A DNA stretch of 48,161 nucleotides, filler included, from Jimgerdemannia flammicorona (GCA_003990765.1; 2 parts of 2 records of this genome joined end to end with filler, not necessarily neighbours in it), one strand, 5' to 3'. Shown: positions 1-42,559, counted from the first letter of the whole stretch. Program-made: numbers and translations. The notes: generated from the letters alone by a model not told the origin.

Positions 1-860
1 TTTTAATAGTCACTTGGACTCTATCTTTATTACCAGTCTATGAATAAGTATACAATATCACCACCCACTATCTGATCCCCATAGGGGGGCCCCTCCCCAC
101 CTCTTCATAGATAAAGACCACCCTCTCACCAACGACTCCAACTCTCCCACCACTCTGACTACAGATTTTCTCCACCAAGTAGCACCTCTGACCCCTCTGT
201 AGCCCCCAACCAAGCCACCAGCCTGTCAAGGTGTCCTCCATAAGGCACTGCCACCATGATAACTGGCTCCCCAAGCTCTGTCATCTCTCTTCCTCAAAAA
301 TAAATAGCCAGTGACTGGCCAGCCCAATCTAAATAGCCAATGCCCAGCCTAAGGTAATCCACTCCATCTCTACCCCTCCTACCAATCGATTCCTCAGGTC
401 CTCCCACCTCCCCCATACATCATCTCCCCTACACCTCACCCCCAAGTAGTCTCCAATGGCCTGTCAAAAGTCTCCCAACACCTCACACTCTCCTAGCCAA
501 TGTTCCGGCATCTATACAAATCCCCCTTCCTGCCCTACATTATGGCACTCCTTACAGTCAAAGCAACCCCCCATGACAAGGTGTTCTGTGCGGAAGTTGA
601 GCATCATATTCCTCCTCAGCATGTACCACCAGACTACCCAGTACTTCAGTAGCATCCATTTATTCACTGCAGTACTCCAGATCCAAACACTATACCAGTT
701 CCACTCCTCTCCAATTCCAACTCCTTGCCAACCACTAGGCCACAGATCCTGGTCTGGTCCCCTTTGGCATTCTACTCCATCACCAATGTCGAACTCAAGT
801 AAAGGTATGCCGCCCAGTAGAATGCCATCCCATCTCCACATTGCCAGGTCCTGGAAAGTA
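1..860 (-). mobile_element. 3' end of degenerate L1/Tx1-like LINE (ORF2 C-terminal zinc-binding region and 3' UTR)
   Basis: Minus frame reads CFDCKEC...*MPEHWLGEC, a zf-RVT-like CxxC..EH...EC motif. AATAAA on minus at 26-31 next to a T-run. Sequence is similar to 24139-24850. Confidence 0.7.
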
Positions 861-2345
861 TGATCAAAAGAAGATCATACCAGATAGGTGAATAAGTATA
901 AATACCCAAGGCAAGAATACTCCACAACTCTTATTCCCCTCTTATCACAAAGAAAGGACAAGACAAGAATGCCTGCTACCTACCACCAAACTGCCCACTA
1001 TAGCTAGCCTCTCCTAAGCCAGATTGACTGCCTTTTTGGACACATCCAGATTACTATCCAAGGAAGGAACTGCTGCTCTGAGGCCCTTAACCTCTCCAGC
1101 CCAGACCTAAGACAATATGTTCTTAACTACTATGAACTAATTAAAAGGGCCTACCTTGTCACCAGCCACCTAGAGATCTGGCATGAATACAAAATTGATC
1201 ACTAGCTTCTACAACATACAAATGGCCTATCCACTGACCAGATCTCAGACTAGACCCCTGGACAGACATGAGCAAAGACTTGTCAAGAAGATCTATCAAA
1301 TTATGTGCCATGTACTTTTTGCAATCTCCAATCTCAACTACATACAACTGAAGGATTTCCAGAACCTCTCTTTCCCTGAGGTTGATGAGCTAGAAATCAT
1401 GGTAGCCCAGGAAGCCAACTTCTGAATTGCCCTCAAGTCTACTGACATCAAGCCCCACTGGAGCCTCCTCCTGAATGACAACCCAGATCAATAGCTATAA
1501 GACCTCTCTGATCTCTTCAAAGGACCACCTATCCAAATAGATATTTCCAGGTATGAGAATCAAGAACTCTACTTGGATGGCCCCAACTGCATTAGATAGA
1601 GAATCCCTACACTAGCACTCATACCAATACAAGAACCATTTGCAGACCTTATTGACTTCTCTATTCTGGATAGTGAGCCATCAGTAATCACCCCCTCTGT
1701 CACTGAAAAAGATGGCAACAATACTGAGGAAGACTCTCCACCTTTCTCTCTCCTAGTTCTCAATTTCTAAATCAATAAGGATGTTGATTTCTAAGGAGAG
1801 AAGAATGTAATAAAATGAGTGAACAGATGAGACATGATAAGCAATTACATGACCTAGTGATGATGTCATCATACAATTGAGTGTGACATATGATATTATG
1901 AATGACAAACATAATGTATGATGTGAACAATATGAATAAACAATATCTAGCTTATCCCCAGTAATCAGTACTACAGTATAGTATTGCAGCAATCAGTATG
2001 GCAGTAATTGGCACTGTAGTAACCAGTGCCACAGCAATGCTGATCATTGCCTAGCAATAGATATTACAATCACAAACCTCACCATAGTTACCAAATTATA
2101 GTTAGTCAGAAATTGTAAACTAACTTATATAAATACCCCCCCAGTTTCTATCTGAAATAAAGCAGTTTTAGTTCAGTCCTTGATACAAGAATCAAGTCCC
2201 CCCCACACACACACATTTCCCTGAATCTTAGTAATGATATCTAAGTGACTCTAGTATTTCTAACTAAACTCCAGAAGCCTAGCTAACTTCTGCCCAAACT
2301 GAGACTGGTATATAAATTTTCAAAGACTTAAGTAAATCCATTAAA
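861..2345 (+). mobile_element. Diverged, probably solo or truncated, Gypsy LTR related to element A LTRs
   Basis: Carries a homologue of the A-LTR ORF. TATAAATA...CTGAAATAAAG at ~2128-2162 matches the same block in the A LTR. Ends are not clearly defined. Confidence 0.6.
969..1770 (+). pseudogene. LTR-encoded accessory ORF of unknown function (~265 codons; stops and one frameshift near 1255)
   Basis: MPAT start. Blocks IWHEYKI, KKIYQIMCHVLFAISNLNYIQLKDF, LNDNPDQ, LFKGPPIQ and FADLIDF align with the A-LTR ORF. Confidence 0.75.
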
Positions 2346-2579
2346 CCTGAATTCTAAGGCAAATTCAGTCTATATATAGCAAAGAATAAGACTCTTGAAA
2401 GATAGGGCAAAAGAGAAAGATCTTTGAAAGATAAGGTACTATTACTATAACTACTTTAAGTAAGTACTTTCTCAAACAGAAGGCTTCTTGGTATACATTG
2501 TGTACTAAGTCCCTAAGTAATAGTCTTACTTCCCTAATTATCCAAAGGATAAGAGAGAGATAGAAGTGAGAGTTATTAT

Positions 2580-4530: not shown

Positions 4531-4559
4531 CATCACAACCCAAGCTGACCCATGTACAT

Positions 4560-9758: not shown

Positions 9759-11321
9759 TGTCACATAGTGGTCACTGAGTTCTTCAAATACATCAGATTC
9801 TCTTCAAGGTGTATCTCTTAGACTAACTTAAGTTTGTTATAAGCAAGTTCTTATTGGAGTGCCTTCCCAAGGTCTTATAGTCCTCAAACTTCTTATCTTT
9901 AAACTGTCTTGTTATCTCTTTAGATTGCTTATAAGAAATTGTGTATATTGTACTGAGAGGAACTGACTTTATTTCAGAGAAAATAAGAGGAATATTTATA
10001 CAAAATATAATTCAATGGTTGCTAATATATAAAGCTAAATATAAATTCCAATAACTAAAATAAAATTCCAGAACATAGAAAACTGCTAAGTTCCAGTGTC
10101 AATACTGATGGTTGCATAGGTTTAGGATGCTGGTATAATTTTGGTGATACAGGAAAATGATGCTGGAATAATTCTGAGTCACATCAGAATACCAGTGGAG
10201 AAATAGCTGTTATATAGGAAAAGAGTACTGAAATAATTCAGTATAATCAAGAGACTTAGAGCAGAATGTTCAAGACCATAGGGGCTTCATTCTCATCAGA
10301 GGTCAGGATGTCTTCAAAGGAGATGAGGTCTGCGAATATTTTATCTATCTCATCATTATTGCATAGATCACATATTTTGCATATATTGCACAGGATGAAG
10401 TCATCGCCAATTATGTCATCACATTCAGTGGGGAAATCAGAGGCTCTCTAATCTATGAGGTTCTCTTCTACAAAATAGGGGACAAATGTAGGATCTTAGA
10501 GAGATCTAACCTAGATGCTTAGACCTTGGAATACTGAGATCAATTCTTGTAGAAATTGGTCTGGGTTGTCCTGGAGGATGGGATACCAGAAGTCTTTTAC
10601 TTAATTACTATTGAGGGTGATAGTGGACTGGACTTCTGTAGCCACTCTGGCTTCTAGTATATTGATATAACAGGCTGACAGGTCTCTGAAGTCTGAGACT
10701 CTAATATACTCTAAGTTGGGGATCAACAATAGTACATGTCTGAAGATCTGATGGATCTTCTTAGCTATTTTTGTTTTGTATATATCCATGGGAGTGGCAT
10801 CTTGTAACTCTTGAGGGCTGGCCTGTGAGAACTCCTGGTAGAGGAGATTTCTTATTTCATACTCCTGCCACATTTAGAGACATTCAGTAGTAATGGTGAT
10901 CCTTATTTCTATTTCATGGCAGTAGAGAATAAAGTGATAAGAATCTGCAGTATCTAGGTTGACACTAGGAGTCCTTCTTGTGTGTCCTCATAGCTCTTCT
11001 GATGTCTTAGAATATCCTTTCTTCAACTGAGATACCTTGATGGTTCCTTGACCTTGAGGTTTGGCAAGTAGCAGGCATTTCATTTATTATAAGTCTTTGA
11101 GCTATTTTGGGATTGGTGGGTCTTATTGAGTTGCTGCTACTATAGTTTCTTGATCCTTCTTTTATATTTCTCAAGATGTCTATACTGTGGTCACAATGAC
11201 TCACAGTTAGTCATAATTGCTCATCTTGTATGCTATATAATCTTCTTGTGCTCCAATCTGGTGACTTTTAAGAAAAGGCTGTCTCCTGTGCTGATATCAT
11301 CATTCTGGAGTCACTGTTACA
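9759..11321 (-). repeat. Element A 3' LTR (1563 bp)
   Basis: Direct repeat of 16978-18546. Preceded on minus by PPT CAGGAGGAAGA (11332-11322). Confidence 0.95.
10256..11078 (-). pseudogene. U3-encoded accessory ORF, 3' LTR copy (2-bp deletion near 10985)
   Basis: MPATCQTSRSRNHQG...KKIHQIFRHVLLLIPNLEYIRVSDFRDLS...FADLISFED. Spans 823 nt versus 825 nt in the 5' LTR. Confidence 0.8.
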
Positions 11322-11759
11322 TCTTCCTCCTGAATAAGGATCTTCTTGAGTATTTTTATTCATTGGTCCAGTTCTGAAAAATTTGTTGATCCCATAACCT
11401 CTGGTAAGGGGTCAAAAAGTGGTGTTTATAGACTAGTATCTTCTCTATATATTTTGACATAATGGTGAAAGATTGCTCCCTTCATATAGAGTAAGGTCTG
11501 ATTCTAATCTTGACCAATTAGTTGATGGTTCAAACTCCTCTGGCTTTGAAAGTCTTATAGATGAGTAGTTGCTGGTACTGTATCCCTTAGAGAATGGTTC
11601 AGACAGATAGTCTGCTGGTCATGGAATATGCTGTTATGATTTGTGAACTAGAATCTCATGGATGGTCATCATATTTTACTTCTCTTATATAGGTTTATGG
11701 TACTTCTTGAGTCTGTTTCTATGTACTGTAGTAGGCAGTATGGTTCCTGAGATTTTTCT

Positions 11760-12750
11760 AAGCCAGAAGGTAGTTCTTTTAATATCTTGCACATAAAAGG
11801 GTTCTTCTCATTTGGGCTTCAGTTTTTGTAACTATGAGGCTTCTACTATATTTCAATACAATAGAACCTTTTCTCCAATTTGGATGAGTTCTAGGGTCTT
11901 GTGATTCTTTTCTACATTCTTTCTTATCAGCACTTGTGACTTGATGATGTAATATTTAGCCTTCTTCCTAATTTGGTATAGTCTCTGGATTTCTGCATTG
12001 ACCCATCTCTAAGTTAGGTCTAGATTTGTGGCTGAGATTCCATCAGAATCTTCTTCTCCAAAGAGCAGTTCTCTTGAGGTAAAGTATGTGCTCTGTGACC
12101 ATATGTCTCATAGGACAGAGAGGGCAGTTGGGAGGTAGTTATCCCAATTCTCATATATCTCTGAGATTTTCACCAAGATGTTCTTAAGGGTCTTGTTGGT
12201 TCTTTCTATCTGTCCATTTCCTTGAGAGTGGTATACAGTAGTCTTGATGTGTTGAATCTTATATTTCTGATACATTATCTCATGGAATCTATTGACAAAT
12301 TCTGTGTCACAGTCTGTTGTGATTTGCTTTGGTGTCTTGTAGTGGCAGATAATTTCTTGGTGCAGGAAGTCAGCTATAGAGAGGATATTGGCTTCTTATA
12401 ATACTCCTGCTTCTATCTATTTGGTAAAGAGGTCTACAATAACTATAATATAGCAGTTTCCTGATAGTATTACTGGTAGTGACCCAATGATATCCATTGT
12501 GATGTAGTGGAAGAGGATAGGCTCAATTCTTGATGACCCAGATGCCTGGTCTTGCTGATCTTATTTCTGTTTTTAGCACTTGTCATACTCTTTGACAAAT
12601 TGGTACAGATCTTCTTCTATCTTGAGCCACCACATAGTTCTTCTTACATTGTCATATATATTAGTTTCTTCTAGGTATTCTTACTCATGTACTTCTTTTA
12701 TTACTTGATACTTCTTATATTCAGGTATTACAAGTTTTCCTCCTTTTCTG
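11760..12750 (-). pseudogene. Integrase of element A
   Basis: ITMDIIGSLPV..GNCYIIVIVDLFTK, ITTDCDTEF and TTVYHSQGNGQIERTNKTLK motifs. Confidence 0.9.
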
Positions 12751-12929
12751 AGTATGGTGTTGTCTAGTTCAAACTATTTTCAAGTCTGGTTGATGATGGT
12801 GATTGTCCAGGGTTTGAGATAGTTGAGCATCTTCTACTGCTCAAGGTAGCTAATTAATCCATAGTATAACTCCTTATTTATGTTGAATAGTCTTAATGGG
12901 GGTGTTTTGGAGTGTCCTTGAGAGTGCAT

Positions 12930-14170
12930 CAGCATTGGTGTTGGTTCTTCCTGATTGGTGCTTGATATATAGTCATACTCTTGCATTCTGTAGATCTATC
13001 TAGTATATATTTCTTTAGGGTTCAGAGTATGGAATAGCCAGGCAAGAGTAGAATAGTCTATTTTAATAGTAAAGTATTTCCTGGCTAGGTAGTAGTGGAA
13101 CTTATCTACTGCCCAAACTACTGCTAAGCATTCAAGCTTATATGACTCATAGTTCTGTTCTGCTCTATAGATACCTCAACTTGCATAGGAGATAACATAT
13201 TCATGTCTATCTTTCTTCTGAGCTAGGACTGCTCTAAGTCCTATAGCACTCACATCTGTCTGCAGGATGAATTCTAGGTTCCAATCTGGTCTTCTGAGGA
13301 TAGATACTTGGATCAATCTGATCTTGAGTTCATTAAAGGTTTCTTGGCATTTCTTGGTCCATTTGAATTTAGTTTCCTTCTTCAGTAGCTTGTAGATAGG
13401 TGCTGTAATGTTAGAGTATTCTTTGATGAATCTTCTATAGTAGCTGGCCAGTCCAAGGAAGGCATGGACTTCTGTGGTTGTTCTGGGTCTCAGGTAGATT
13501 ACAATAGCCTCAATTTTTATAGAGTCTGTGTGGATTCCAGTCTGGTTGATGAGATGTCCTAGGTAGGTGATTTCTTGAGCTATAAACTTATATTTCTTGA
13601 GCTTGATGTAGAGGCCATACTCCTTGAGCTTCTTGAGGGCTAGCTATATGTGGTTGACATGTTTCTGTACAGTGTTGCTGAAGATGATTATATCATCAAC
13701 ATAGACAAAGAGCTATTTTCCAATCTTATTACTGAAGACTCTGTTCATTATTTGCTAAAAACTTGCTGGGGCATTACACATTCCAAATGGTATTTGCACA
13801 TAGATATAGATGGTATCAGGTATAATGAAGGCTGATTTCTCACTGGCATCTTAAGTGAGATCAATCTGATGGAAGCCTGAGAACAGATCTAAGGTAGTGT
13901 AGTATTTGGCTTCACTTCCAAGAGTGGTAAGAATTTCTTGAATATTTAGTAAGAACTGCCTATCTTTCTTAGTAATTGTATTGAGCTTCCTGTAGTCAAT
14001 ACAGAGTCTTGGTGCAAACTCTCCAGGCTTGCTTACTTTCTTTGGGGTGAGGACAATGGGTGAAGTCTAGGGACTGATAGCTTGCTTGATGATTCCAGCT
14101 TCTTCCATTTCCTTGAGTTCTGCTTGCAGTCATTCTCTATAGGCAGGTGGTATAGGTCTGGCTTTCTGGT
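12930..14170 (-). pseudogene. Reverse transcriptase and RNase H of element A
   Basis: PRLCIDYRKLN, TLDLFSGFHQI, VYVDDIII (~13700), FILQTDVS, ECLAVVWA and NADALSR motifs. Confidence 0.92.
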
Positions 14171-14384
14171 AGATCAGCTTGGTATTGCCAGTGTCAACTT
14201 TATGATAGTACTTAAGTAGATATCCCTGAAGTCTGTAGCAAGTACTCCTTCATTCTGGTGCAGGATCTTGAGAAGTTGTTCTTCTAGGGAAATGTTTTCT
14301 CCAATAGTATATGTGTGCTTATTCTGGTTCTTGTCTTTCTTGTGCTCAAGTTTGGTGATCTTAGTGGTAGTATAGACTTCTCTT

Positions 14385-14770
14385 CCAGTAGATCCAAAGC
14401 CTTGTTCTCCTCTCTTGGTCTTGATGAGTTTGATGGCTTCAGTGATCTTAGGCTTCTTGATTTCATAGATCAGCATCTGGTCAATCCTGTCATACTTTTG
14501 ACTTCAAATGGGGTGGTGGGGTTGTGATTCCTAACCATGAGGAAGATCTCACCAGTGTAATCAGAGTCAATTACTCCTCCTTCAATTGAGATTTCACTTT
14601 TGGTCAGACTGCTCCTGGTCTTGATAATTCCAGTATAGTTCTCTGGTAACTTGACTCCAATTCCAGTACCAAGTAGAGTAGTGGTCTGTAGTTCAAGGGT
14701 AGCATCTTGAATACTGGCAGGTCTATTCCTATGGCTCCTTCAGTCTTATATTCTGGAATCTTGGCTTCAG
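14385..14770 (-). pseudogene. dUTPase domain within pol of element A
   Basis: RSSL (motif II), GGVIDSDYTGEI (motif III) and RGEQGFGSTG (motif V). Confidence 0.9.
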
Positions 14771-15169
14771 AGTGGAACTTCTTGACCTTGAGGGTGATAT
14801 CTGGTTCTTGTTTCTCCTCATCATCACTGTTAGCTTGAAGCTCTGGGGGCTGGTCATCTTCTTCAGCTTTCCTTTTTGCTTCAGTGGCTTCTTGCTCATA
14901 CTTCTATTGGCAGATTTTCCTGATGTCACTGATACAGGACCAGCAGTCATTCAGGTGTTCAGAGCAGTACATCCTAGTACTATGGGGACATCTTTCTTGA
15001 GGGATATAGCTATCAATGATCTTATTGTACCACTGCTCATCTGTAAGCTTGGGTGTCTTATTTTTATTCTTGTTTACCAAGTATATGAAGACTTCTGTGT
15101 CCTCTTCATCTTCTTCCTCCATGTCTGATAGAACTCCTTTGTAGATATTAATAGAGACTTGTACCTTTC

Positions 15170-16950
15170 TTTCTCTATAGTTGATCTACATCTTCTGGAC
15201 ATTGAGGTCAATGATGGCCTTGGCCTTATGAAGCTATTGATTATCAATGAGGATGTCATAGTTGGTGGCACTTATAACAATCACATCTACTGGGATGGTA
15301 GCTCCTCCTATCTTGATGGGGACTTCTCGGATTTTGCCAAGAGGGGTAGCTTATATATCATCTGCTATAATATAGACCATCTTGGTGGACTCTTCAATGT
15401 CCCAGCCTAGGTGGTCAATTGCCTTCTCACTTATGAGGTATCCTCTAGCATTAGTATCAATGATGGTATCAAAGATATAATCTTCAATCTGATATAGGGT
15501 ATAGGCTGATGTTTTGTACTGATCTTCAGATTCTTCTTGTATATTGTGAGCTTCTACAATCTTATACTCTTAATTCATGGCAGTAGTTACAAGTCCTACT
15601 CTCAACTGCTGTCTGAAGGCAGGGACTTCAGCTAGCTGTCCAAATGTAGCATTGATCTTTTGTTCTTTAAGGTCCTTATAGATATCATACTGATGGATCT
15701 TGGTCTTGTGCAGCTTCTGTTTCTTCTTGCTTTCACTTTTTCCTGAGACTGGAGTAGTGCCTTCAATGATTTGGCAGACAGCTTTATCTAACTCCATGTC
15801 TTGATCAATCTTCTCAGGTTGGGTCTTGCTTTGGATAATGACAGCTGGGGTCTTCTTTGGTCTTCCAACTGGCTTACTGTTGCTCTTCTTATCATAGGGT
15901 TTGGACTGGGTTCTGGTACCTTCAGTAGCAGGGTAGAATTTGAGCTCTTTAGAGTATTCTTCATCATCAGTGTCACCAATCTCCTTGATGACTACTACAT
16001 TGATTTGTTCTCCAGTTCTGCTAGCATTACTTGGTTGGGCTTTGTGTCTTATTTCAGTCATGCAACTCTTTGCATAGTGGCCTTCTTCTCTATATCTAAA
16101 GTATGTGATATTGTATTCTTCTGTAGCAGCTGCAAATCTCTGCGCTGGTCTTCTGTTAGTGCTTCAGACTTCTCTAACAATATCACTAAGGTATATAGTC
16201 ATCTCAATGAACTACTTGGCAAGTTCCTCTACTGGATCAGCTTTGGCTACCTTGGAGATAGATGGGGATGATTGTCTGTTTACAACTGTAGTAGATATAT
16301 TACTAGTTGGCTTTGATATGTAGCTCTATCTTGATGCCAGTTATTTTCTCTATTGAATATTCAGCAGAGTGTCTGGCAGTCCAATATCTCTGTATAAAGA
16401 CCACTTTCTGATCAAGAGTCAGTACAGCTGGGGTAGATCAGATTGCTAGGGCAATTTCAGGGTGAACTTCTTTGAGGAAGGTTGAATCTGCTATTTGTTC
16501 CTTGAGGGTATCATCATAGCCAGCCAAGACAATCTGGTGGCAGATTTGGGTACAGAATGAGTTGAGATCTTCACTGAGTCCCTGGTAGATAGTATTGAGT
16601 TGATCCTTGAGAGCTTGCTTGATCTCTTCAGTATAGTATATTATTCTGAGAAAGGCCTTTATATTGGTAAGTTTATCAGCAATAGTAGCTGTATTGAACT
16701 TATCTCTGGTAGGTCCTCTGAGGCTGACAGGTAGAAGAGCCAATTGTACATCCACACCAAGGGCTCATATGGTGGCAAATTATTCAAAGTCTTCAATGAA
16801 GGTCAGGATTGACTCTTCAGTAGTATATCTATATAATGTGAGAGGACATATTTCTATCTTATCTTGAATTCTTGCAGGGGTAACTCTTGTAGTCTGGGGA
16901 GTTATTGTGGTGGTTGTTTATTTTTCAGCTTGAAAGTGAGGAATTCATCT
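15170..16950 (-). pseudogene. gag and aspartic protease of element A
   Basis: gag homologous to B gag, with a decayed knuckle near 16110-16060. Protease IIDTNARGYLISEKA (decayed DTGA) near 15460, followed by DILIDN. Confidence 0.8.
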
Positions 16951-16957
16951 TGAATCA

Positions 16958-16974
16958 CCAGCCAATGAGCACCA
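16958..16974 (-). promoter_or_regulatory. Primer binding site of element A (TGGTGCTCATTGGCTGG); priming tRNA not identified
   Basis: TGG lies 3 nt downstream of the 5' LTR. A near-identical site occurs in B at 41801-41785. Confidence 0.7.
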
Positions 16975-16977
16975 AGT

Positions 16978-18546
16978 TGTTACATAGTGGTCACTGAGTC
17001 CTTCAAATATATCAGATTCTCTTCAAGATATATATATCTCTTAGACTAACTCAAGTTTATTATAAGCAAGTTCTTATTGAAGTGCCTTTCTAAGGTCTTA
17101 TAGTTCCCAAACTTCTTATCTTTAAACTGTCTTGTTATCTCTTTAGATTTCTTGTAAGGAATTGTATATATTGCACTGAGAGGAACTGACTTTATTTTAG
17201 AGGAAATAAGAGGGATATTTATACAAAATATAATTCAATAGTTGCTAAGATATAAAGCTAAATATAAATTCCAATAACTAAAATAAAATGCCAGGACATG
17301 GAAAACTGCTAAGTTCCAGTATCAGTACTGATGGTTGCATAGGTTCAGGATGCTGATATAATTTTGATAATATAGGAAAATAATACTGGAATAATTCTGA
17401 GTCACATCAGAATGCCAGTAGAGGAACAACTATTATACAGAAAAAGAGTACTGGAATAATTCAGTGTAATCAAGAAACTTAGAGCAGAATGTTCAAGACC
17501 ATAGGGGCTTCATTCTCATTAGAGGTCAGGATGTCTTTGAAGGAGATGAGGTCTGCAAATATTTCATCTATCTTATTGTTATTACATAGGTTGTATGTTT
17601 CACATATATTGTATAGGATAACATCATTGCTGATGACATCATCATATTCAGTGGGGAAATTGGGAGCTCTTCAATCTATGAGGTTCTCTTCTATGAAATA
17701 GGGGACAAATGTAGGGTCTTGGAGAGATCTAACTTGGATGCTTGGGCCTTGGAATACTGAGATCAATTCTTGTAGGAATTGGTCTGGATTGTCCTGGAGG
17801 ATGGGATATCAGAAGTCTTCTACTTTATCACTATTGAGGATGATAGTGAACTGGGCTTCTGTAGTCACCCTGGCTTCTAGTATATTGATACAGCAGACTG
17901 ACAGGTCTCTGAAGTCTGAGACTCTAATATACTCCAAGTTGGGAATCAATCATAGTATATGCCTGAAGATCTGATCGATCTTCTTAGCTGTCCTTGTTTC
18001 ATATATATCTATGGAAGTGATATCTTGTAACTCTTTAGAGCTGGTCTGTGGGAACTCCTGGTAGAGGAGGTTTTCTATTTTGTATTCCTGCCATATTTAG
18101 AGGTATTTAGTAGCAATAGTGATCCTTGTTTCCATTTTATGATAGTAGAGGATAAAGTGATAAAGATCTGCAGTATCCAGGTTGATACTAGGAGTCTTTC
18201 TTGTGTGGGTCCTCATGGCTCTTCTAATATCTTGGAATATTCTTTCTTCAACTGAGGTGCCTTGGTGGTTTCTTGATCTTAAGGTTTAGTGAGTAGCAGG
18301 CATTTCATTTGTGGTAAGTCTTTGAGCTATTTTGGAATTAGTAAGTCTCATTGAGTTGCTACTACTATAGTTCCTTAATCCTTCTTTTATATTTCTCAAG
18401 ATGCCTATACTGTGGTCACAATGACTCACAGTTGGTCATAATTGCTCATCTTGTATACTGTATGATCTTCTTGTGCTCCAATCTGGTGGCTTGCAAGAAA
18501 AGACTGTCTTCTGTGCTGATGTCATCATTCTGGGGTCACTATTACA
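16978..18546 (-). repeat. Element A 5' LTR (1569 bp)
   Basis: Direct repeat of 9759-11321, followed on minus by the PBS. Confidence 0.95.
17479..18303 (-). pseudogene. U3-encoded accessory ORF, 5' LTR copy (274 codons, no frameshift)
   Basis: ATG at 18303 to TAA at 17481-17479 is 825 nt in one frame. Internal stops are all TAA/TGA revertible by a single transition. Confidence 0.85.
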
Positions 18547-18715
18547 AGATATACTAGATTGGTAGCAGTGAAATCAGTCAGTATATCCTAATATTTCATG
18601 AATGACTCATAATTATCTTGCTATTTTGGTGACATCTGTTCCATCTGAATATATTTTTTCTATTGCTGGTGAGATAGTGACTGAACATCAAAACAGCTTG
18701 TATATAAATACAATT
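18547..18715 (+). pseudogene. hAT C-terminal dimerisation domain (continuation after Gypsy A)
   Basis: Removing A plus one AGAT restores YID-ILDW*Q*NQSVYPNIS*MTHNYLAILVTSVPSEYIFSIAGEIVTEHQNSL. Confidence 0.9.
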
Positions 18716-18879: not shown

Positions 18880-19165
18880 AAATAATAGGTTGGGTGATGT
18901 ATATTTCCAGGTCAGATTAAAGATAAGTTATATTTAATTCTAGGTTAGGTTAAAGACAAGTAATGTATATTTCCAGGTTGGGTTAAAGATAGGTGACATA
19001 TAATTCTGAGTTAGGTTAAAGATGGGTGATGTATAATTCTGGGTCGGGTTAAAGATAGGTAATGTATAATTCCAGGTTGAGTTAAAGATGGGTGATATCT
19101 AATTCTGGGTTGGCTGTTTTACAGGTCAGGTTTCAGGTTAATCAGATTGAGTTTGCAGAGCACTA
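18880..19165 (-). repeat. Right subterminal 33-bp array and terminal inverted repeat of the hAT element
   Basis: About 7 copies of GATGGGTGATGTATAATTCTGGGTCGGGTTAAA-like units. Ends in GAGCACTA. Confidence 0.85.
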
Positions 19166-22100
19166 CTCTCCTCCTCCTCTACCTTTCTGTTGTCTTACCA
19201 GCTTTACTCCAGTAGATACTAGTAGTCTTCTTCAACCTCACTCACCAGATGCCAACTGCAGCCTCCTCCTGTATCCAGTCCTCCATTCTCTGCTAAATAT
19301 CCTCCACTTACTTGTCCCACAAGCTCTTCTCAGCCAACAAAGAGAAATTGAGACACTAATATCTAGGTCTATTCTCACTTCTCTCAAAATATCCCTATCC
19401 CAATAGTTTCCAGTGATCAGATCATGGACACCACTCAGCCTCTAGTGACTTCTAAACATCCAAGCCCCAATAGTCTGCTATTGGTATCTAATTAATTCTT
19501 ATACCCAGACCATTTATCCAGTACATACATATATATTCTTTGATTACTCCAGAACCCCCTGCCAGCATCTACCAGAGCACTCAATCTCTATACTTTCTCT
19601 CATGTCTCCAACCTGCCACTCCTGCCCACAGTCCCCCACCTTTCATCAGTCCTATCTACCACATATTAAAGTCCCCTCCACAAATATCCACTCCAGCCCC
19701 TGCAAGAATCTCACTCTCCAGGAGTCCCTTTATCCAGTCTACTCTCTCATTGTATATAGCAGGGCAGTAATAGGACCCCACCATAACTAGCTTTCATCCT
19801 GGTTGAATCCACTCTCCCCAGACTAGCCTGTTCCCCCAGCTTCTTATATCTTGTATCTCCCCTCTGCCTCTCCATATCAAGATCTCAACCTTTCTCTTCC
19901 AAACTACTACACTTCTCCATTCTGTTGTCCAATTCAGTCTGTCTAAATCATCTTCACATCTAACATTCTGCAGAAGAAAGAGATCAGCCTCCAAGCTCTT
20001 CAACTAAGTAAAAATATTCCAACACCTAACCAAACTCTATTGCCCATTCATATTTAAAAAAAATATATTCATTATACTATTTATAATAAATAATATTAAG
20101 AGTTATACCTACTCTCTACAACTCCACATTCATTCTTTTCTGAGCCAAGTTCAAGTTGTGTTCCCCAGCTACTGCCTCCTCTTCAACTCTTCTTACCTCC
20201 AATCTAATCTGAAGTTCAGTTAATTTACCATCCTTTTTTTCCTCAAAATCTTCATGATACTCCAGGCAGACCTCCTGCCAGAACTGTAATCTATAATGCT
20301 CTATTCAACAGAAGGCAGCTCTCTCACCAGCAGCCACTGCCAGCTCAGCCTCTCTCTCCTTATCAATCTCATATCCTTTCTCTTTCAGGAAAACTGCAAG
20401 TACCTCTGCCTTCAGTACCTCTACCACTCCATCACCACACAGGACCTATGCCCAATACTCATCACTCATCACTCTCAGGTCCACTTCTCCCAACTCCTCA
20501 GCAAAGTTATTTATTATCCAGCACATCTATAATAGATTTCCTACCTCCTTCTTCTCTGAAGTTACTGCCCTTCCTTTATCCAATATTGAGATATCTGCCC
20601 CTACACTCACAGTCTCATTCCACTCCTCCTCTAAGACATCTATCAGTTCATCCTCACTAGCCACCACCACCTGTCCCCCCCTTGCCACCTCAGGAACTCC
20701 AAAGTATACTTTCTGGGCACCATACATTGGCACATCCTCTGCTGTCTGGTCTCTTACCACTGGCCCCCATCTGATAAGAGGAGTAGGAGTATCCTCTTAG
20801 ACTTCAAAAGTATCATCCTCATATGAGTCCTTATTTGGTGCCTTCTTGGTCCCCTTCAGACCCACCTCTATATTCTCTTCACTTCTGCTGGCCCAGACAC
20901 TCACTTTGGCTCCTCTAGTATCCTCACTACCACTAGCAGTCCTCTTCACCTCTTTTTCTAGTTTTACCAGCAACTCCCTCTACCTTGGGACCTCTCTCAT
21001 GGCCCCTTATCCACTCAGATTCACTTTCTATCAATAATCTCCAAGTGCATCAACTCTACATATGCCTTCTAAGCCTTCACTCTCTGCACCATATACTACT
21101 CAGCTCCTCTAGCACCTCCAACAGGTCCTCTTCCTCCTTCTCACCCCTCTTCACTCTTATCACCTTGTATATGAAGGCTCTCTACACCATCACTGAAGGC
21201 CAATTATGAGCCTTCCCAGTAGCCTTTCTCTCTGCCAACTGAATCTAGATATCAATATCTCCTGTCTGAAAGGAGGTCTTTTCTCAGATCCTGAATCCTA
21301 TATCAACTATCTCTCTATACTTGACCATGACTTCCTTAACTCTCCTCCTTGTCTCCACAGTAGTTACTATAGGAACCCCTTTTATCAGAAGCTGTACCAT
21401 TCTGGAATCTCACCTCAAGTAGGATACACACCTCCCCAACCATCAACCTAGCCTTCAGTGCATCCTCTAATAACCCAGTCTCCTCAAAACCCACCTCTAC
21501 TCCTTCCAGGCTCCTCAGAAACTTAACAGACACTACACCTTCCATTTGCTTCATGATTAGCCCCAGGACCATTTTTGCCATTACTGCCAATTCCTAGAAG
21601 TACAAGGTAACTACAAACTCTGAGATCGACTTCTTGAGTAATGGGGCTACTGCCAGGCTTGTTATACTATTGATCAGATTACTAGGCCTCATACTCTTCT
21701 CACAACTCAGTCTAACATCAGCAGTCCCATCTAGATTTTTTTCCAGATTGCCTATCATGCTCTCATCAGCAGCCACTCTCTCAGTTACTACACTGTCAGC
21801 CCCCTTACTCTGACCCCCCAGAGGGACTCCTCCCTATAGCTACTGCCCCACATTCATTATCAACTTCTTGCCTCTCCTCAGTCAACCTTCCAGTCTAGTT
21901 ACTGGCTATCTCTCCTTTACCTTATCAGCAAAGCTTGCCCTCCTAATTCTCTGTCCTCTTATACTGCTTCCTCTTCTTCTATATTCACCTGCCAGCAGAC
22001 CTCTCATACTTCTCCCCAAGTCAGGGCCCCTCCCTACATGCTGCCAGTTGAATATACTTGGGCCCCCCTGCTCAGTACATATCTCAGAATACTCATTACT

Positions 22101-22319: not shown

Positions 22320-24038
22320 AGATAATTAAGAACCAGAAAAAACAAAAGAAGTACTATAATCAGAAATAGAAAGATCAGAAGATTAAGATTGAAGATCAAG
22401 TACTAGTTTATAGGAGTATGACCAAACAAACACATGGTCGTCCTTTCACCAGTAACATTCGGGTGACACAAGACTCAGACAACACTTTTTACAATGTTTT
22501 TGGTGTCCAACGACTAACAACATGGATGGCAACAATCGATCTGGTGAGCGTACTGGCCAGGGGAGTGATGGCGCCTTTGGCTGGCAGTAGGTGGGGAGGA
22601 GGGGAGATGGTTTGGGGATGCCAGGGGCCTCGATGGCTAGCCGTGGCCCCAGCGGCGGAGGGAGGGGTGGTCTGCGACAGAGAGGAGGGGAGAGGACGAC
22701 CTTTGCTGACAAGGTCAGGATGAGAAAGATGGCTTCTGGGCTGGATAGTTGGCTGGGCCTGGGGAAGGCGCCGATGGCTACTACTGGGGGTCAGGGAGGT
22801 GCACCCCTGAGTACTTCTGGTAATAGGGAAGGGGCCAGAGTAGGGGCTGGAGATGTGATGGTTGATGGGGCTGTGACTGGGGATCTGGCAAAAAATCTAG
22901 ATGTGTTGGCGGTTGGCAATTCAGGCCTTGGAGGGGGTACGAGGCCCGGGGACCTGGCGGATGGGGTGACGGGCATGGTGTCGGCCCCATTACTCAAGAA
23001 GTCGAGGTCTGAATTCGTGGTCACGATGTGCTTCCGAGGCTTGGCAGTGACGGCGAGGATGATTTTGGGGCTGGTGGCACAGGAGGCTAAGGGAGCGGTA
23101 TCGGTGAAGTTCTTGAGAGAAAAGGAAGGGGTCGAGGTAGGGTTTGAGGAGGAAGATGCCTTGTTGGCAGCCATGGAGAAGGGGGTGATGGTTGGCGGGG
23201 TTGTGGTCCCTATGGCCTGGTGTATGTGCTGGGACCCCTGGGTGGTGCAGTTGACGGTATTGGACCTTCCCACGGTGTCGAAGGAAAGGACCAGGGAGTT
23301 GGTGTTGGAGGTGATCAAGAAGTATGGTGAGATTGTGGATGTTGGGTTCAAGGTCTGGGAGGGCACGGAGCTTAGAACTGAAGACGTTGATGTCAGGGTG
23401 AGACTGGCTAGAAAGGAGAATATGGAGAAGTCGAGGGACTGGCCGGCGGTGCTGAGATGGGGACCGGTGGAGTGTAAGGTCACTAGGGTAAAGGGGACTC
23501 AGGAGGAGGAGGAGGACCTGTTGGAGGCTCTGGAGGACCTGGAAGGGGCAGTTGTGAGGAGGAGATTAGCCTGGAAGGAGTTTGAGGCGTACAAAGACAA
23601 AGGAAGGAGGGAGGACTGGAAGAACTGGAGGCCGATCATGCTTTTGGATATGGACAGGAAGATAGTGACTAAGGTGATTGTCGCTAGGCTGCAGAAGGTT
23701 GCCCAATAGGTGCTGGGGGAGGAGCAGAGGGGCTTTGTTGGGGGTAGGCTAATAAGGGATGGGACTGCTTGGGTCCATGGTGTCATTGAAGGGGCCCGGG
23801 CCTGTGGACTGGATGGGAGGCTGGTCTTTCTGGACCAGGAGAAGGCCTACGACCGGGTTCGGTGGGTGTGGCTGGGGAAGGTGTTGGACCGCATTGGAGT
23901 CCCATCGACGTTTAGGGCCTCTATGTTGAGTCTGCTGGAAAGTAGTCGGGCCGCGCTGACGTGTAATGGTCACCGCGGGAGGGCGTTTCCCTTGGGAAGA
24001 GGGGTACCTCAGGGGGACCCTCTATCCCCTATTCTCTA
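22320..24038 (+). mobile_element. Younger LINE copy of the same family: 5' UTR, ORF1 joined in frame to RT, cut by the gap
   Basis: ORF1 from ATG 22522 with TAG at 22588. RT motifs KNWRPIMLL, QRGFVGGR, LDQEKAYDRV and GVPQGDPLSP. CpGs are retained. Confidence 0.9.
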
Positions 24039-24138
24039 NNNNNNNNNNNNNNNNNNNNNNNNNNNNNNNNNNNNNNNNNNNNTTAATTAATTAANNNNNN
24101 NNNNNNNNNNNNNNNNNNNNNNNNNNNNNNNNNNNNNN
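24039..24138. other. Assembly gap with linker: N44-TTAATTAATTAA-N44
   Basis: Exactly 100 bp and symmetric. The 12-mer gives stops in all six frames. Confidence 0.97.
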
Positions 24139-24850: not shown

Positions 24851-24919
24851 CAAAAGAATACTATCTATATATACTTAAAATATAAGAAAATATTGTAAAA
24901 ATAAAGAGATCTCAAAGAG

Positions 24920-35520: not shown

Positions 35521-36409
35521 GCATATTGGTGTCAGAGATCTATACTCTACCAAAACTTATATACTATCTATATAGTATCTTAAATATTTCTATAAACATT
35601 GACCTATAATTTTTAATAAAATCTCTCATTATACTTAGTAACTATTAACTAAAAGATCTTAAAGAAATAGTGTAGAAAATATTTTATTTTTCATAAAAAT
35701 CTTATTTATCTAAGATATTAAATCTGAGAAATCTTATCTAATAAATTTTAAGAAAATTATTATAAATAGTACTTTGAATAAGTAAATAACAAAACTTATC
35801 TTATATATCAAATGACTATATTCTATCTACTAAATCTTTATACTATACTCTGTATTAAGAAGCTGCATATATTTACCAGATTTAAGCAAAAGGGCTAATC
35901 AGTCTTATATTAGAGAGTTGATATAACTATTGTAATGTAGCAGATGCTTACTCTTGAAAGTATGTCAGATTTCTATATCTTGAAAACTTAACTATTCTGA
36001 CTCTCACAGAGTCTCTTGAAGTTACAGGGAAGGGTGGGTGAGTTCGAAGTGTATCTGCCCACAGGCTTACTAGTTCCTTTGCTATCTCTTTGCTTTGAAC
36101 TATTTTGATCTAAGGTTTATTCACTCAAAGATACTTGGTTATTTATATAAGTTTACTAGCTATGAGATGGTTACTGGGTTACATGGCTAAGTTATGAGTT
36201 ATTTAACACTTTGTGAAATATTTTGCCAGTTGCGAAATACTATACTAAATCAAGAAGCTCAATCTCGCACTTTGCGAAATATTTAGCAAATGGTGGAATT
36301 GAGGACTACTAACTATGTGGCTATACTACTTTGGGACTGGGTGCGATCAAGTGTCTGTTCCCTATTTCCTTCTTCCAAATCTGGCTATACCATCACAACT
36401 TCCTCCTGA

Positions 36410-36600
36410 ATAGATGATCTCATCCTGGAAGCATCTATTCAAACTCCCAAGCTTCAATGGTCTGTATGGTCTTGTATTGTGCAATTTGTTGCATTACTGT
36501 TTCCCAATAGTGTTGTCTGACTCGGTTGAAGTCTGAGGGAGTAACTCCTCACAGGTGGGCTAATGCTGGTTCATTCTCTTAGAATAACTTGTGGATTCTC
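36410..36600 (-). pseudogene. C-terminal remnant of post-pol accessory ORF of B
   Basis: RIHKLF*ENEPALAHL*GVTPSDFNRVRQHYWETVMQQIAQYKTIQTIEAWEFE. Same peptide in C at ~27470-27305. Confidence 0.65.
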
Positions 36601-37310
36601 TTTTTTTTTATTTAACGGACTCATGTCCCCCAGATTTTTATTGGAAGGGAATCTAGACTATATAGGCCAAAACCCTCCCCCACCACCCACCAAGTACTGC
36701 CCCCCCATTAATCTAGGCTAGCTATTGTCCAGCAGCTCAACCATGCCAGGTGCAGCAGGGCCTATGTTGGCCCACACCTCATTCTGTGCACCATGCTCTC
36801 CCTACTACTAGGGGAAACCCAACCATATGCCAACGACTGAAAGTGCATGCCTGAGAACCCAACATATGTACAAGACCATGCCTAAGCCGAATAGAATAGC
36901 CCCTGCCACCCCAAAGAGAATGATAGATAAATAAAAAACTCTCATCAAAGCACAATACGGTGGGTAGAGCCTGGTTCTCCCAGTTGAGGTGAGTAAAGGA
37001 CTTACACATGAGGCAGGAGGAAACCCCCAATACCCCTGCAGGCCTCAATCACGTTGCCATGTCAGCTCCCGGTTCCAGTTAAGTATAGCCAAGATACCTG
37101 AAATGGGTAGCCTCAGGCCTCCTGACCCCCTCTGATGACTGGGGCCCAACCCCACTGACCGCCAAAAGAAGCCGATAGTGACATCTACCACCTAACTGTG
37201 CTGCACCAATCAAAAGGCCCCACCAAAGCAGCACCCACCCCGCCCCCAGCCTGGCACCCTACTGGTCTACCATTATCACCCTTCTGCCTATCTGTGATGG
37301 CCATCTCCCA
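36601..37310 (-). mobile_element. 5'-truncated non-LTR insertion with poly(A) tail, replacing B integrase
   Basis: T-run at 36601, a CLMC motif and GC-richer composition. B integrase stops at AHIAIDVISPL. Confidence 0.6.
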
Positions 37311-37749
37311 GAGGGCTGATTACATCTATTGCTATGTGGGCAAATAATACTGGTTCTATGCATACTGATCCTGGAGCTTGATTTCATTGGTCTTGTTTCT
37401 GTTTCTGGCATTTGTCATAGGTTCTGATGAGTTGTCTGATATCTTCTTCTATTCCAGACCACCATATTGTTCTTCTTGCCTTGTTATATATATTTGTTCC
37501 TCCTAGATGGCCAAGTTCATATACTGATTTCATCACTTACTCCTTCTTATGTTCTGGTATAACTAGTAGTTTTCCTTTCTTCAGTGTTTCTCTGTCAGTT
37601 TCGAATTGTTTCTATGTTCTGTTGATAATTGTTTATGTCCATTCTTCCAGATGTTGGGGCATCTTTTGCTGTCCCAGATATGTGATGATTCCATAGTAGA
37701 GCTCCTTATTCATGATTGATTTGTTGGTTGGAGATAGTTTGGGGTATTC

Positions 37750-39000
37750 ATGAGAGGATATCTGCATTGGCATTGGTTCTTCCAGAGTGGTATACAATGG
37801 TTACATCATAAGCTTGTAACTTCATTATCTATCTGGCATAGATTCCTTTGGGTTGTCCAGTTGTCAATAGCCAGGTGAGAGCTGAGTGGTCTGTTTGGAT
37901 AGTGAAGTGTCTCCCAGCTAAGTAGTAGTGGAACCTTTCTATGGCCCAGATGACTGCGAGGCATTCCAACTTATAGAATTCATATTCTTTTTCAGCTCCT
38001 CAGGTTCCATGGCTGAGGTATGTAATGACATACTCCTTTTTGTCTTCCTTTTGAGCTAGGACTGCTCCTAGTCCCTGTGCACTTGTGTCTGTCTGCAGAA
38101 TGAATTCTTGAGTCCAATTGGGTCATCTGAGGATGGGTGTCTGAGTTAGTCTGATCTTGAGTTCATCAAATACTTTTTGTTGTCTACCAGTCCACTGGAA
38201 TTTGGTATCCTTCTTATTGAGTTCATAGATTGGTCCTGCAATGTTGGAGAATCCTCTAATAAATCTGTGATAGTAAGAGGCAAGTCCCATGAAGGCTTGG
38301 GCTTCTGTAATAGTAGTGGGTCTTGGGTATGCTGCCACTGCTTGTATCTTGAGAGAGTCCATGTATGTTCCATCTTGGTTGATAATGTGACCAAGATAGG
38401 AGATCTTAATTTCTACAAACTTGCACTTTTTGGGCTTGATGTCTAGGCCATGCTTTCTCAGTCTTTCCATTATCTGCCAGATGTGTTGCAGGTGTTCTTC
38501 TGGTGTCTGGCTGTAGATGATTACATCATCAACATAGACCATCATCCATCTTTCCATATCATAGTGGAAGATTTTGTTCATCATTCACTGGAAACTTGCT
38601 GGTGTATTGCACATTCCAAATGGCATTCATAGGTAGACGTAGGTTCCATCTGGGGTGATGAAAGCTGACTTTTCACTTGCCATGTCTGTGAGTCCGATTT
38701 GGTGGAATCCTGAGTATAAGTCCAAAGTGCTGTAGTACTGTACTTCATCTCCCAGTATTATGAGGATGTCATTGATGAGGGGCAGTGGTTGGCGATCCTT
38801 TTTGGTAACCATGTTGAGCTTTCTGTAGTCAACACAGAGTCTTGGGGCAAATTCTCCAGACTTGCTGCCCTTTTTCAGGGCTAGTACAACAGGTGAGGAC
38901 CAGGGGCTGCTGGCTTCTTTGATGATACCAGCTTCTTCCATCTGATTGATTTCTTCTCTGAGCCATTCTCAGTAGGCTGGTGGGACAGGTCTTGCCTTCT
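37750..39000 (-). pseudogene. RT and RNase H of element B
   Basis: SPWSSPVVL, RLCVDYRKLN, TLDLYSGFHQI, VYVDDVIIYS, ECLAVIWA and NADILS motifs. Confidence 0.95.
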
Positions 39001-39228
39001 GATAAATTGGTTCAGTGTTTTCAGTATCTATCTCATGATAGTAGTGTGGGGTCTTTCCTTTGATATCCTTGAAATCTGTGGCAAGGACATCTTTGAATTC
39101 GTGAAGTATTTTCTTGAGTTCTTTCTTGAGTGGGAATTCCTTTCTGATGGTGTAGCTGTGCTTGCTTGTGTTTTCCTCCTTCTTATGCTCGAGTTCGGTG
39201 ATCTTGGTGCTGGCAAATACTCCTCTTC

Positions 39229-39620
39229 CTATGGATCCAAATCCTTTCTTTCCTCTTTTCATTTCCTCCAGCTTTTTAACTTCTATGATCTTTGGTTGTA
39301 GGATTGGAAAGATCAACATTTGCACCAATCAGTCCTTCCTCTTGACTGAAAATGGGATTGTAGGATTGTGATTCCTAGCAATGAGTAGAATTTCTCCAAT
39401 ATAGTCTGAATCAATGACTCCTCCTTCGATTGTGATTTCGCTTCTAGCCAGGCTGCTTCTTATCTTGAGAATCCCGATATGATCCTTTGGGATGGTCATC
39501 TCCAGTCTAGTTGCAAGTAGGGTGGTTGTCTGGGGTTCCAGTACAGTCTCCTCTACTGTAGCAATATCCATTCTGGCTGCATTTTCTGACTTGTATTCTG
39601 GCAAGACTGCATCAGGGTGG
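39229..39620 (-). pseudogene. dUTPase domain within pol of element B
   Basis: AARMDI, RSSLA, GGVIDSDYIGEI and RGKKGFGSIG. Confidence 0.92.
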
Positions 39621-39857
39621 ATCTTTCAAATCTTGATCTTGATTTCTTCTTCATCATCACTGTCCTCCAGGAGGGCTGGTGGTTCGTCATCTTCCTCCTT
39701 CTCTTCTTCCCTAATCTGTTTTTTGAGAGCTTTCTGCCTTCTTTCCTGGGGTTCTGATAGTGTACTGGTAGCAATCATTGATATGCTCCATACAGTATAT
39801 CTTGATTCCATGGGGACAGACTCCTTGTGGGGCATAATCTTCTGTGATCTTCTTGCA

Positions 39858-41775
39858 CTATTCTTCTTCACTCATCCATCCAACTTTCTTCTTCTTTGGA
39901 GTAGTCACTATATAAGCTTCCTCTTGCTCACTCTCTTCTTCCTCTATATCAGGCAGGACTCCTTTATTGACATTAATGGGAATTCGTATCTTCTGTCCCT
40001 GGTAGGTGATCTGCATCTTCTGAGCATTGAGATCGATTACTGCCTTGGCTTTGTGAAGCCATTGATTGCCAATGAGGATGTCATAGTTAGTGGCATTGGT
40101 TACAATTACATTTACTGGGATGGTTGCTCCTCTAATCTTGATGGGAACAGCTTGGATCTTTCCCAGAGGTGTGGCTCTTGTGCCATCAGCTGTGATGAAC
40201 ACTAGTTTAGTTGCTTCTTCCACATCCCAACCTAGGCAGTCTGCTGCCTTCTTGCTAAGGAGATATCCTTCTGCTCCCATATCAATGATGGCTTCAAAGA
40301 TTCTATTCTCAATTTGGCATATTGTACATATAAGCAGAGGTTTTGTGATTGTCCTCACTTTCTTCTCCTGAGTCCTCTTGAATGTATTGGCCTCAGTTAT
40401 CTTCCATCCCTGTTCCTTAGTTGTTTCGGCAAGTCCAAACCTCATTTGCTGTCTGAATGTTGGGATTTCTGTGAGCTGACCAAAGGTTGCATTGACGTTT
40501 TGTTGACTGAGGTCCTTGAAGATATCATACTTGAAGGTCTTGGTCTTACGAAGCTTCTTTTCTTTTTCTCCTTCACTGGCTGGAGTGGTTCCTCAAATGA
40601 TATCTTGAACTGCTTGCTCCAGCTCGATATCTTGGTCCATCTCTTTGGCTTGGCTTTTTGTGGCAGTTTCTATCCACTTTTTCACTGGGTTCTTCTTGGG
40701 TCTTCCTGGTGGTCTCTTGTAGGGTTCTTTGTGAGCATCCTTCTTGGTGGTCTGAGCAGGATAGGCCTCCTATTCCTCTTCATCAGATTCTCTGATTTCT
40801 TCAAAGGTGATTGTATTGGCCTGCTCCTTGTTTCATGTAGCATTGCTTGGTTGAGCCTTGTGCTTGGTTTTGCTCATGCATTCATAGGAGTAGTGGCCTT
40901 CTTCTCTGCAGCTGTAGCAGGTACCTTTCTTCTTGTCTGAGGTAGTGGAAAACTTCTGAACAGGGTGGCAATCTCTTCTGCAGATTTCCTTTACCACATC
41001 TCCCAGGTGGGCAGTCATTTTAGTAAACCTTTTGGCAAGTTCCTCCATAGGGTCACTGTTCTTTTGCTGCTCTGTAGCTTTTGGCTGAGGTGTGTTTTGA
41101 TTGATCATTGTGGTGGAGATTACACTGGTTGACTTAGGTGCCTCAATTCTAACTCCTGTAACTCTCTCTATCATATGGTCTTGTGGGTGTCTGGCTATCT
41201 AGTATCGCTGAGTATAGGTGACCTTTTGTGGCAGATCCAGAATCACTGGTGATGAGTGGATAGCCATGGCTATTTCCAGATAGACTTCTTTCATAAAGAT
41301 TGCTTCAGCTACTTGATTCCAGATAGCAGCAGCATAATCTGCAAGAATTATCTGATATTGAATTCTGGTATAGAATGTGTTTGGATCCTCACTCATTTCT
41401 TGGCATATTGTATTGAGCTGATCCTTCAGGGCTTGCTTGATCTCATCTGTATAATATATATTTCAGAGCCAGGTCTTCTGTGCTATCAGTATACCATCGG
41501 CATCATTTCCTGCATGGGTTGCAGCTGTGAATGCTGCTCTGGCAGGACCTCATAGGCTGAAGGGCATGAGGGCTACTTACTGTACTGCTGTCAGGGTCCT
41601 TATAGCAGCATACTGCTCGAAATCATCAATGAAGGTGATGATTGATTCATCTGAGATATATCTATGGAATTCTGGTGGTCTCATATCCATCTTATCTGGG
41701 TATTGGAGCTCAGTTTGTATGGTTGTTCAGGTAGTGGCAGTTGTTTGTTGTTCAGCTTGAAAGTGAGGGATTCGT
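39858..41775 (-). pseudogene. gag (CCHC knuckle) and aspartic protease of element B
   Basis: CYSCREEGHYSYEC; AIIDMGAEGYLLS...YDILIGNQWL. Confidence 0.9.
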
Positions 41776-42559
41776 CTTAAATCACCAGCCAATGGGCACT
41801 AAGTTGTAATGTAGTGGATGCTTACTCTTGAAAGTACGTCAGATTTCTGTATCTTGAAAACTTGACTGTTCTGACTCTTGCAGAGTCTCTTGAAGTTGTA
41901 GAGGAGGGTGGGTGAGTTCGAAGTGTATCTGCCTGCAGGCTTACTAGTTTCTTTGCTATCTCTTTGCTTTGAACTATTTTGATCTGAGGTTTATTCACTT
42001 GAAGATACTGGGTTATTTATACAAATTTACTAGCTATAAGATGGTTACTGGGTTACGTGGCTAAGTTATGAGTCATTTAACACTTTGCAAAATATTTTGC
42101 CAGTTGTGAAATGCTATACTAAATCGAGAAGCTCGATCTCACACTTTGCAAAATATTTAGCAAATGGCGAAATTGAGGACTGCTAACTATGTGGCTATAC
42201 TACTTTGGGACTGGGTGTGATCAAGTGTTTTTTCCCTATTTTCTTCTTCCAAATCTGGCTATACTGTCACACTATTTTATTTATTTATTTTTACATATAT
42301 ATATTGAGTATAAAAGAGATTCTTTGTATATTCTTATCAGTTTTACTACTAATGAGAGATCTTTAATTTATAATATCAGTAAACTATAAATCATACTATA
42401 TTAGTAATTATAACTACTTCTATACTGATATTCTGTCCAAAGCCAAAAAACAGCCAATTAAGTGCAATACTTCTTATACTTATAGCAATCACTATACCCA
42501 GTATATCTATTTACTCATTGAATAACTACAAAGTCACTATGGGTACATATAATATATAT

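Follow-up and report, generated by a model that had tools for sequence, protein, structure and literature searches.

A putative accessory gene inside the long terminal repeats of a decayed Ty3/Gypsy retrotransposon

Element A, its insertion site and the layout of its LTRs

We analysed a stretch of 48,161 nucleotides of Jimgerdemannia flammicorona DNA (GCA_003990765.1; two parts joined end to end with filler), referred to below as the window, and its positions are used throughout (Table 1). The window contains a degraded retrotransposon, element A, whose two long terminal repeats (LTRs) are 88% identical (blastn), begin with TG, end with CA and are flanked by a 4-bp target duplication, ATCT, at 18547–18550 and 9755–9758. 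A Pfam scan of the 5.6-kb interior, performed on frames read through stops, returned Asp_protease/RVP_2, dUTPase (1.2e-10), RVT_1 (1e-28), RT_RNaseH_2 (8e-28), Integrase_H2C2 and rve in this order, with a CCHC knuckle upstream of the protease; the layout is gag–PR–dUTPase–RT–RNaseH–INT, with the integrase after the reverse transcriptase. On its LTR ends and target duplication, its domain order and its primer-binding region and polypurine tract, A is a Ty3/Gypsy (Metaviridae) retrotransposon, inserted into a DNA transposon. The insertion exactly split a hAT dimerisation domain (18548–18700; 4.8e-13, Pfam), and because this domain resumes at 18548, the outer border of A is fixed independently of the LTR comparison. 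Inverted arrays of a 33-nt tandem repeat (4557–4756 and 18891–19113) bracket the hAT-like element, and the DNA around A is likely to be a hAT-type transposon with sub-terminal repeat arrays. The dUTPase of A lies between protease and reverse transcriptase, at 14000–14900 on the minus strand. Excerpts of published accounts place a dUTPase at the same position in fungal and rotifer Gypsy elements (PMC6431247, PMC2864245), and part of an Entomophthora preprint describes dUTPase as enriched together with retroviral domains.

Table 1 Features of element A and related elements in the window
Feature	Position	Strand	Remarks
Element A, degraded Ty3/Gypsy LTR retrotransposon, 8788 bp	9759..18546	minus	LTR pair, TG..CA ends, ATCT duplication, Pfam domains
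5' LTR of A, 1569 bp	16978..18546	minus	from borders; hAT dimerisation domain resumes at 18548
Upstream TATA-like box TATAAAA, LTR position 156	18385..18391	minus	88 nt before ATG; candidate ORF promoter
LTR ORF, 5' LTR copy	17479..18303	minus	274 codons + stop; ATG at 18303, terminal TAA 17479–17481
Spacer with three CAGTA motifs, ORF to main TATA	17326..17453	minus	candidate enhancer/response elements
Main LTR TATA box TATAAATA, LTR position 1324	17216..17223	minus	256 nt 3' of ORF stop
AATAAA, LTR position 1351	17191..17196	minus	27 nt after main TATA; presumed poly(A) signal
Putative primer-binding region	16955..16977	minus	directly after 5' LTR; near-identical stretch after 5' LTR of C
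Polypurine tract AGGAGGAAGA	11322..11331	minus	directly 5' of 3' LTR; same tract in element C
3' LTR of A, 1563 bp	9759..11321	minus	repeat match to 5' LTR
LTR ORF, 3' LTR copy	10256..11078	minus	6 premature stops and a 2-bp deletion in codon 32
LTR-like unit B, solo or truncated LTR	786..2460	plus	borders approximate; same layout as LTR of A
Third, diverged ORF copy, P0009 subfamily	969..1769	plus	7 in-frame stops, one frameshift near 1257
Sister Gypsy element C	35930..42271	minus	LTRs 468 bp, 35930–36397 and 41804–42271, 91% identical

Elsewhere in the window, tblastx revealed another decayed Gypsy interior, a relative of A (28361–32514, minus), and, beside it, an inverted leader/gag fragment (32733–33753, plus). 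A GC-rich stretch (57% GC) at ~23000–24038 on the plus strand shows non-LTR reverse-transcriptase motifs in translation and adjoins two 44-base N gaps (24039–24082 and 24095–24138), at which, at ~24 kb, the assembly is evidently broken. C-rich, strand-skewed repeats (GC skew about −0.45) pair 3–704 with 24139–24851 and 3225–3766 with 19194–19736; the copies are 61–66% identical, and one of them ends about 80 nt before the LTR-like unit B.

As originally predicted, a sense-strand open reading frame (ORF) of 274 codons is present in both LTRs of A, on the minus strand of the window and at LTR positions 244–1068. The prediction also placed this ORF within U3, a position that we infer from motifs, by which U3, R and U5 were assigned. 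The assignment draws on sister element C, whose 468-bp LTR has TATAAATA at 251 and AATAAA at 277, and no ORF. The same module, TATAAATA followed 26–28 nt later by AATAAA, is common to A, unit B and C, and the primer-binding region and polypurine tract of C are nearly identical to those of A. Given these common parts, the LTR of A can be read as the promoter backbone of C plus about 1.07 kb upstream of the TATA box; and because the ORF lies upstream of a module that it has in common with the ORF-less LTR of C, it would fall within U3. Element C thereby offers a natural comparison without the ORF.

Further motifs surround the reading frame. Both LTRs of A have a TATA-like box 88 nt upstream of the ATG, and in unit B the ATG at 969 is preceded, 72 nt upstream, by TATAAATA at 897, followed downstream by a second TATAAATA at 2128 and AATAAA at 2156. 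Between ORF and main TATA box, CAGTA occurs three times in A (0.16 expected from shuffles), two of the motifs sitting inside ~30-nt direct repeats, and five times in unit B (1959–2006, plus; 0.44 expected); in each of the two LTR types that bear the ORF, the CAGTA cluster thus precedes the main TATA box by 100–230 nt. The U3 of element C has three occurrences of a related motif, AGTATAG.

The recurrence of a TATA-like box 72–88 nt before the ATG, in both LTRs of A and in B, would also fit an arrangement in which this upstream box is the main promoter and the ORF, lying outside U3, is the first gene to be translated from the genomic RNA, as a leader gene. We regard such an arrangement as improbable. 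The TATAAATA/AATAAA module is held in common with the 468-bp LTR of C, where TATAAATA must be the promoter, and a genomic RNA initiated at the upstream box would run into AATAAA about 1.2 kb on, still in the 5' LTR and before gag.

Decay of the ORF copies and evidence of past coding selection

In line with the original prediction of a copy free of frameshifts and interrupted by transition-type stops only, the 5' LTR copy has no frameshift and five premature stops: codons 6 and 69 read TAA, and codons 118, 165 and 211 read TGA. All five fall on glutamine or tryptophan columns when aligned with intact relatives, which identifies them as CAA-to-TAA and TGG-to-TGA transitions. Across the two LTR copies of A, premature stops occupy nine positions, of which seven are found in one LTR only; codon 211 was stopped separately in each (TGA versus TAG), and codon 69 is the only stop that both have in common. 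Because the LTRs of a pair are identical at the time of insertion, the ORF held at most one stop when A integrated and was therefore intact or nearly so. It has since been free of constraint, given that the two LTRs diverge by 13.7% within the ORF compared with 9.9% and 9.1% in the non-ORF parts.

The decay has a marked bias. The LTRs of A differ by 171 transitions and 11 transversions, mostly C/T changes before A (41) and before C (36) and G/A changes after T (35) and after G (15). In the whole window, the observed/expected ratio of CpG is 0.07, and AG/CT is enriched (about 1.4). This pattern is indicative of genome defence by some form of cytosine deamination, or of methylation decay, extending beyond CpG alone. 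All three ORF copies in the window are dead, probably ruined by transition hypermutation after insertion.

The third copy lies in unit B and bears out the predicted homologue: the peptides quoted for it are present, and a tblastx comparison of the LTR of A with unit B gave E 1e-28, in the ORF frame only. Its protein is 28–44% identical to that of A, and its identity to the database relative P0009 is 56% and 53%, whereas the DNA of A and B is barely alignable: blastn found only patches of 10–44 nt, at the start codon, one peptide motif and the TATA/AATAAA module. The reading of unit B as a diverged LTR agrees with its layout, which is that of the LTR of A, but within the window we found no partner LTR, target duplication or adjacent Gypsy interior for it.

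We then asked whether the conservation between A and B follows the reading frame. In a codon alignment, first, second and third codon positions were 45%, 61% and 36% identical, respectively, and the difference between the second and the third was highly significant (Fisher p 1.4e-8). In the true frame, pS was 0.73 (saturated) and pN 0.46, giving a pN/pS of 0.64, compared with 0.90 and 1.41 in control alignments shifted by one or two bases. This ratio for A and the third copy is below 1 only moderately because both of these copies have also decayed neutrally; the database relatives described below are known here from protein sequence alone. Protein similarity that outlives DNA similarity, the codon-position bias and the uninterrupted homologues in several subfamilies together support the view that an accessory protein encoded in the LTR was once under selection, as had been proposed.

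That all three window copies are broken might suggest that no gene is involved and that a long non-coding U3 happened to hold an open frame. This explanation is contradicted by the frame-specific conservation between A and B, by stops that are mostly private to single LTRs and by the existence of uninterrupted relatives of 271–342 amino acids (aa) that keep 27–47% identity between subfamilies, and we give it next to no credence.

Relatives and features of the encoded protein

To place the protein, we searched public protein sets in three ways. A word-seeded protein search matched 5 of 224 candidates; a profile search that ran exhaustively through 1.84 billion representatives, unrestricted by length, gave six matches, one of which (P0012) was discarded as a spurious repeat protein; and a profile search of 90% clusters gave 12 matches among 8000 scored candidates. 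In all, 13 distinct relatives of 87–342 aa were recovered, on contigs of 567–4848 nt. They form at least four subfamilies, with 27–47% identity between subfamilies, and those that include the N-terminus all begin with MP. Full-length, uninterrupted members are P0004 (271 aa), P0013 (325 aa) and P0010 (342 aa), which have common motifs along the core and come from three of the at least four subfamilies. No relatives were found in viral contigs or in prokaryote genome contigs. A metagenome locus that matched the search pattern NSEEVEDF, and nothing else, was set aside as a chance hit, being AT-rich and free of repeats and homology.

LTR elements can take up foreign sequence, and the ORF might accordingly be a passenger, a captured piece of a host gene that is of no use to the element, with the database proteins representing the host family. 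The ORF does appear to have been gained or lost as a block, given that element C has the same promoter backbone without it. However, A and B, which cannot be aligned as DNA, both hold the ORF between the same motifs, and this common layout indicates that the linkage to the LTR predates the split of the subfamilies and that the frame was kept meanwhile. The exhaustive search, moreover, yielded stand-alone proteins of 138–342 aa on short contigs, and no longer, fused or multi-domain host protein among the 1.84 billion representatives. We therefore hold a passenger origin to be very improbable.

The original prediction described the protein as unrecognised, and the same conclusion was reached with Pfam, PDB profile searches, and structure prediction followed by Foldseek. 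Pfam assigned no family, its sole match being MCM_WH_arc at a chance-level E of 0.12; across 12 members at E up to 1, it returned nothing but three unrelated chance-level matches, and at E up to 10 no match to a Sag-type family. A PDB profile search gave no matches at E up to 10, and hhalign of the family profile against the gag segment of A gave a probability of 0.1%. AlphaFold reached a pLDDT of 35.9 with 5 sequences and 46.5 with 12, and its model, of low confidence, suggests a helical core (residues 18–185), a small beta unit and a disordered tail. Foldseek searches of the PDB and viral libraries with this low-confidence model returned no matches at E up to 0.001, which is weak evidence for the absence of a known fold; the top rows were random helical proteins, which we dismissed. 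In the ESM Atlas the best feature score was 0.83 with a TM score of 0.33 or less, which is uninformative. Because model confidence was low (pLDDT 36 and 46.5), fold-based readings are empty here. By these comparisons, the ORF product belongs to a new orphan protein family carried inside a Ty3/Gypsy LTR.

The proteins are acidic (pI 4.5–4.9), and charge is unevenly spread: in P0004, the first 40 residues have a net charge of +8 and the last 71 a net charge of −17. Strong N-terminal basicity is confined to subfamily A, the corresponding values being +1 in P0010 and +5 in P0013. The tail contains short hydrophobic–acidic motifs that recur across subfamilies. No transmembrane segment was detected, the highest 19-residue Kyte–Doolittle mean being 0.59–1.07 in five members, which upholds the earlier remark that no transmembrane helix is obvious.

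Possible expression and function, and parallels in known elements

Taken together, these data make it probable that the ORF is an accessory gene, once functional, of one Ty3/Gypsy lineage, located in U3 of its LTRs; for the product we offer a soluble nuclear regulator as our best guess. This guess, which is a tentative one drawn from patterns of charge and motifs, follows from a basic N-terminal part, a conserved core with predicted helices and an acidic–hydrophobic tail that resembles an activation domain. Such a regulator would act in trans, either on the element's own promoter or on the host's control of the element. The regulatory or anti-silencing role suggested in the original prediction is still speculation.

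A real LTR gene with another job is a reading that we rate as about equally likely: the product could be a Rev/Rex-like RNA-binding adaptor for export or packaging, or an antagonist of host defences, by which we mean small-RNA silencing or the cytosine methylation or deamination that ruined the copies of A. The arginine-rich N-terminus of subfamily A and the short hydrophobic motifs near the C-terminus would suit such functions. The extreme CpG loss and the excess of transitions between the LTRs would fit a defence to be countered, and A already encodes a dUTPase, which limits the uracil content of DNA. However, the arginine-rich stretch is weak in the other subfamilies, and the protein has no sequence or fold similarity to known factors of these kinds.

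If the accessory gene lies in U3, it is present on the genomic RNA through the 3' LTR only, and its expression would call for splicing to a sub-genomic RNA or for a dedicated promoter. By the first route, the ORF at the 3' end of the genomic transcript would be translated from a spliced sub-genomic RNA; branch-point-like and pyrimidine–AG sequences can be read 20–25 nt before the ATG in both A and B. By the second, the TATA-like box 72–88 nt before the ATG would drive transcription and the poly(A) signal of the LTR would end the message. An own promoter would make a complete gene of every LTR, solo LTRs included. In its full form, in which each LTR is a self-contained gene (TATA box, ORF of 270–340 codons and poly(A) signal) encoding a trans-acting regulator, and solo LTRs stay live, we consider this proposal rather unlikely. 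Full elements would then carry two expressed copies, and solo LTRs would remain live genes after loss of the element. The product might in turn control the main LTR promoter by way of the clustered CAGTA repeats, in a feedback circuit resembling that of Tas and the spumavirus internal promoter, or, alternatively, might blunt the host's cytosine-directed genome defence.

Whichever the route, a gene placed in the LTR is doubled with each insertion, outlasts recombination down to a solo LTR and is tied to a promoter that it possibly controls. Were the protein to act in trans, the whole family could draw on a factor made by thousands of solo LTRs; and if each LTR is a self-contained gene, solo LTRs would be a dispersed, dosage-amplifying source of that family-wide factor. 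Trans action would also raise a public-goods question in transposon evolution.

LTRs are normally non-coding and, to our knowledge, those of retrotransposons are treated as purely regulatory, with annotation pipelines masking them and never seeking genes there. A search of the full text of openly accessible papers found no report of an LTR-internal or U3 ORF in an LTR retrotransposon; the term 'LTR ORF' occurs almost exclusively in papers on mouse mammary tumour virus (MMTV) or means pol.

The closest positional analogue is MMTV sag, a superantigen ORF of about 300 codons that is wholly inside the unusually long U3 of a betaretrovirus LTR. Like sag, the ORF of A is present in both LTRs and, if in U3, at the 3' end of the genomic RNA. 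Whereas Sag is a membrane glycoprotein (type II) made by a vertebrate retrovirus, the product of the ORF of A has no hydrophobic segment and no match to the Pfam family (MMTV_SAg), and its carrier is an env-less Ty3/Gypsy retrotransposon. Lentiviral nef overlaps the U3 of the 3' LTR and encodes a myristoylated, membrane-associated protein; the ORF of A would likewise share its DNA with U3, but nef overlaps only the edge of the LTR, and its sequence is unrelated, with no Pfam match. The comparison with sag and nef made in the original prediction thus stands as an analogy of position.

In terms of function, the closest analogy, without homology, is spumavirus tas with its internal promoter. The spumavirus genes tas/bel1 and bet are accessory regulators at the 3' end, adjoining or overlapping a long U3, and are served by an internal promoter. 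The protein encoded by A resembles Tas in size and in its acidic tail, and would do so in its second promoter and activator role if our reading is right; by contrast, its ORF is entirely within the LTR, and sequence or fold similarity is absent. Similarity to spumavirus Tas/Bel1, HTLV Tax/Rex or lentiviral Tat/Rev/Nef was not found by Pfam, PDB profile or Foldseek searches, the last of these with a low-confidence model.

Among Ty3/Gypsy elements, the nearest counterparts are accessory ORFs of the internal region: the extra ORFs of plant Ogre, Athila and Tat elements, the ORF3s of bdelloid rotifers and the fungal 'add. ORF', which, in the excerpts of these sources, are located either 5' of gag or in the stretch from pol to the 3' LTR (PMC6431247, PMC5408684, PMC2864245). 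As far as those excerpts go, they are like the ORF of A in being lineage-specific and unassigned in function, and the fungal and rotifer elements are like A in having a dUTPase between protease and reverse transcriptase. Unlike these internal ORFs, that of A is in the LTR and hence duplicated, and would be kept by solo LTRs. Our finding suggests that the U3-ORF strategy of MMTV arose independently outside the retroviruses.
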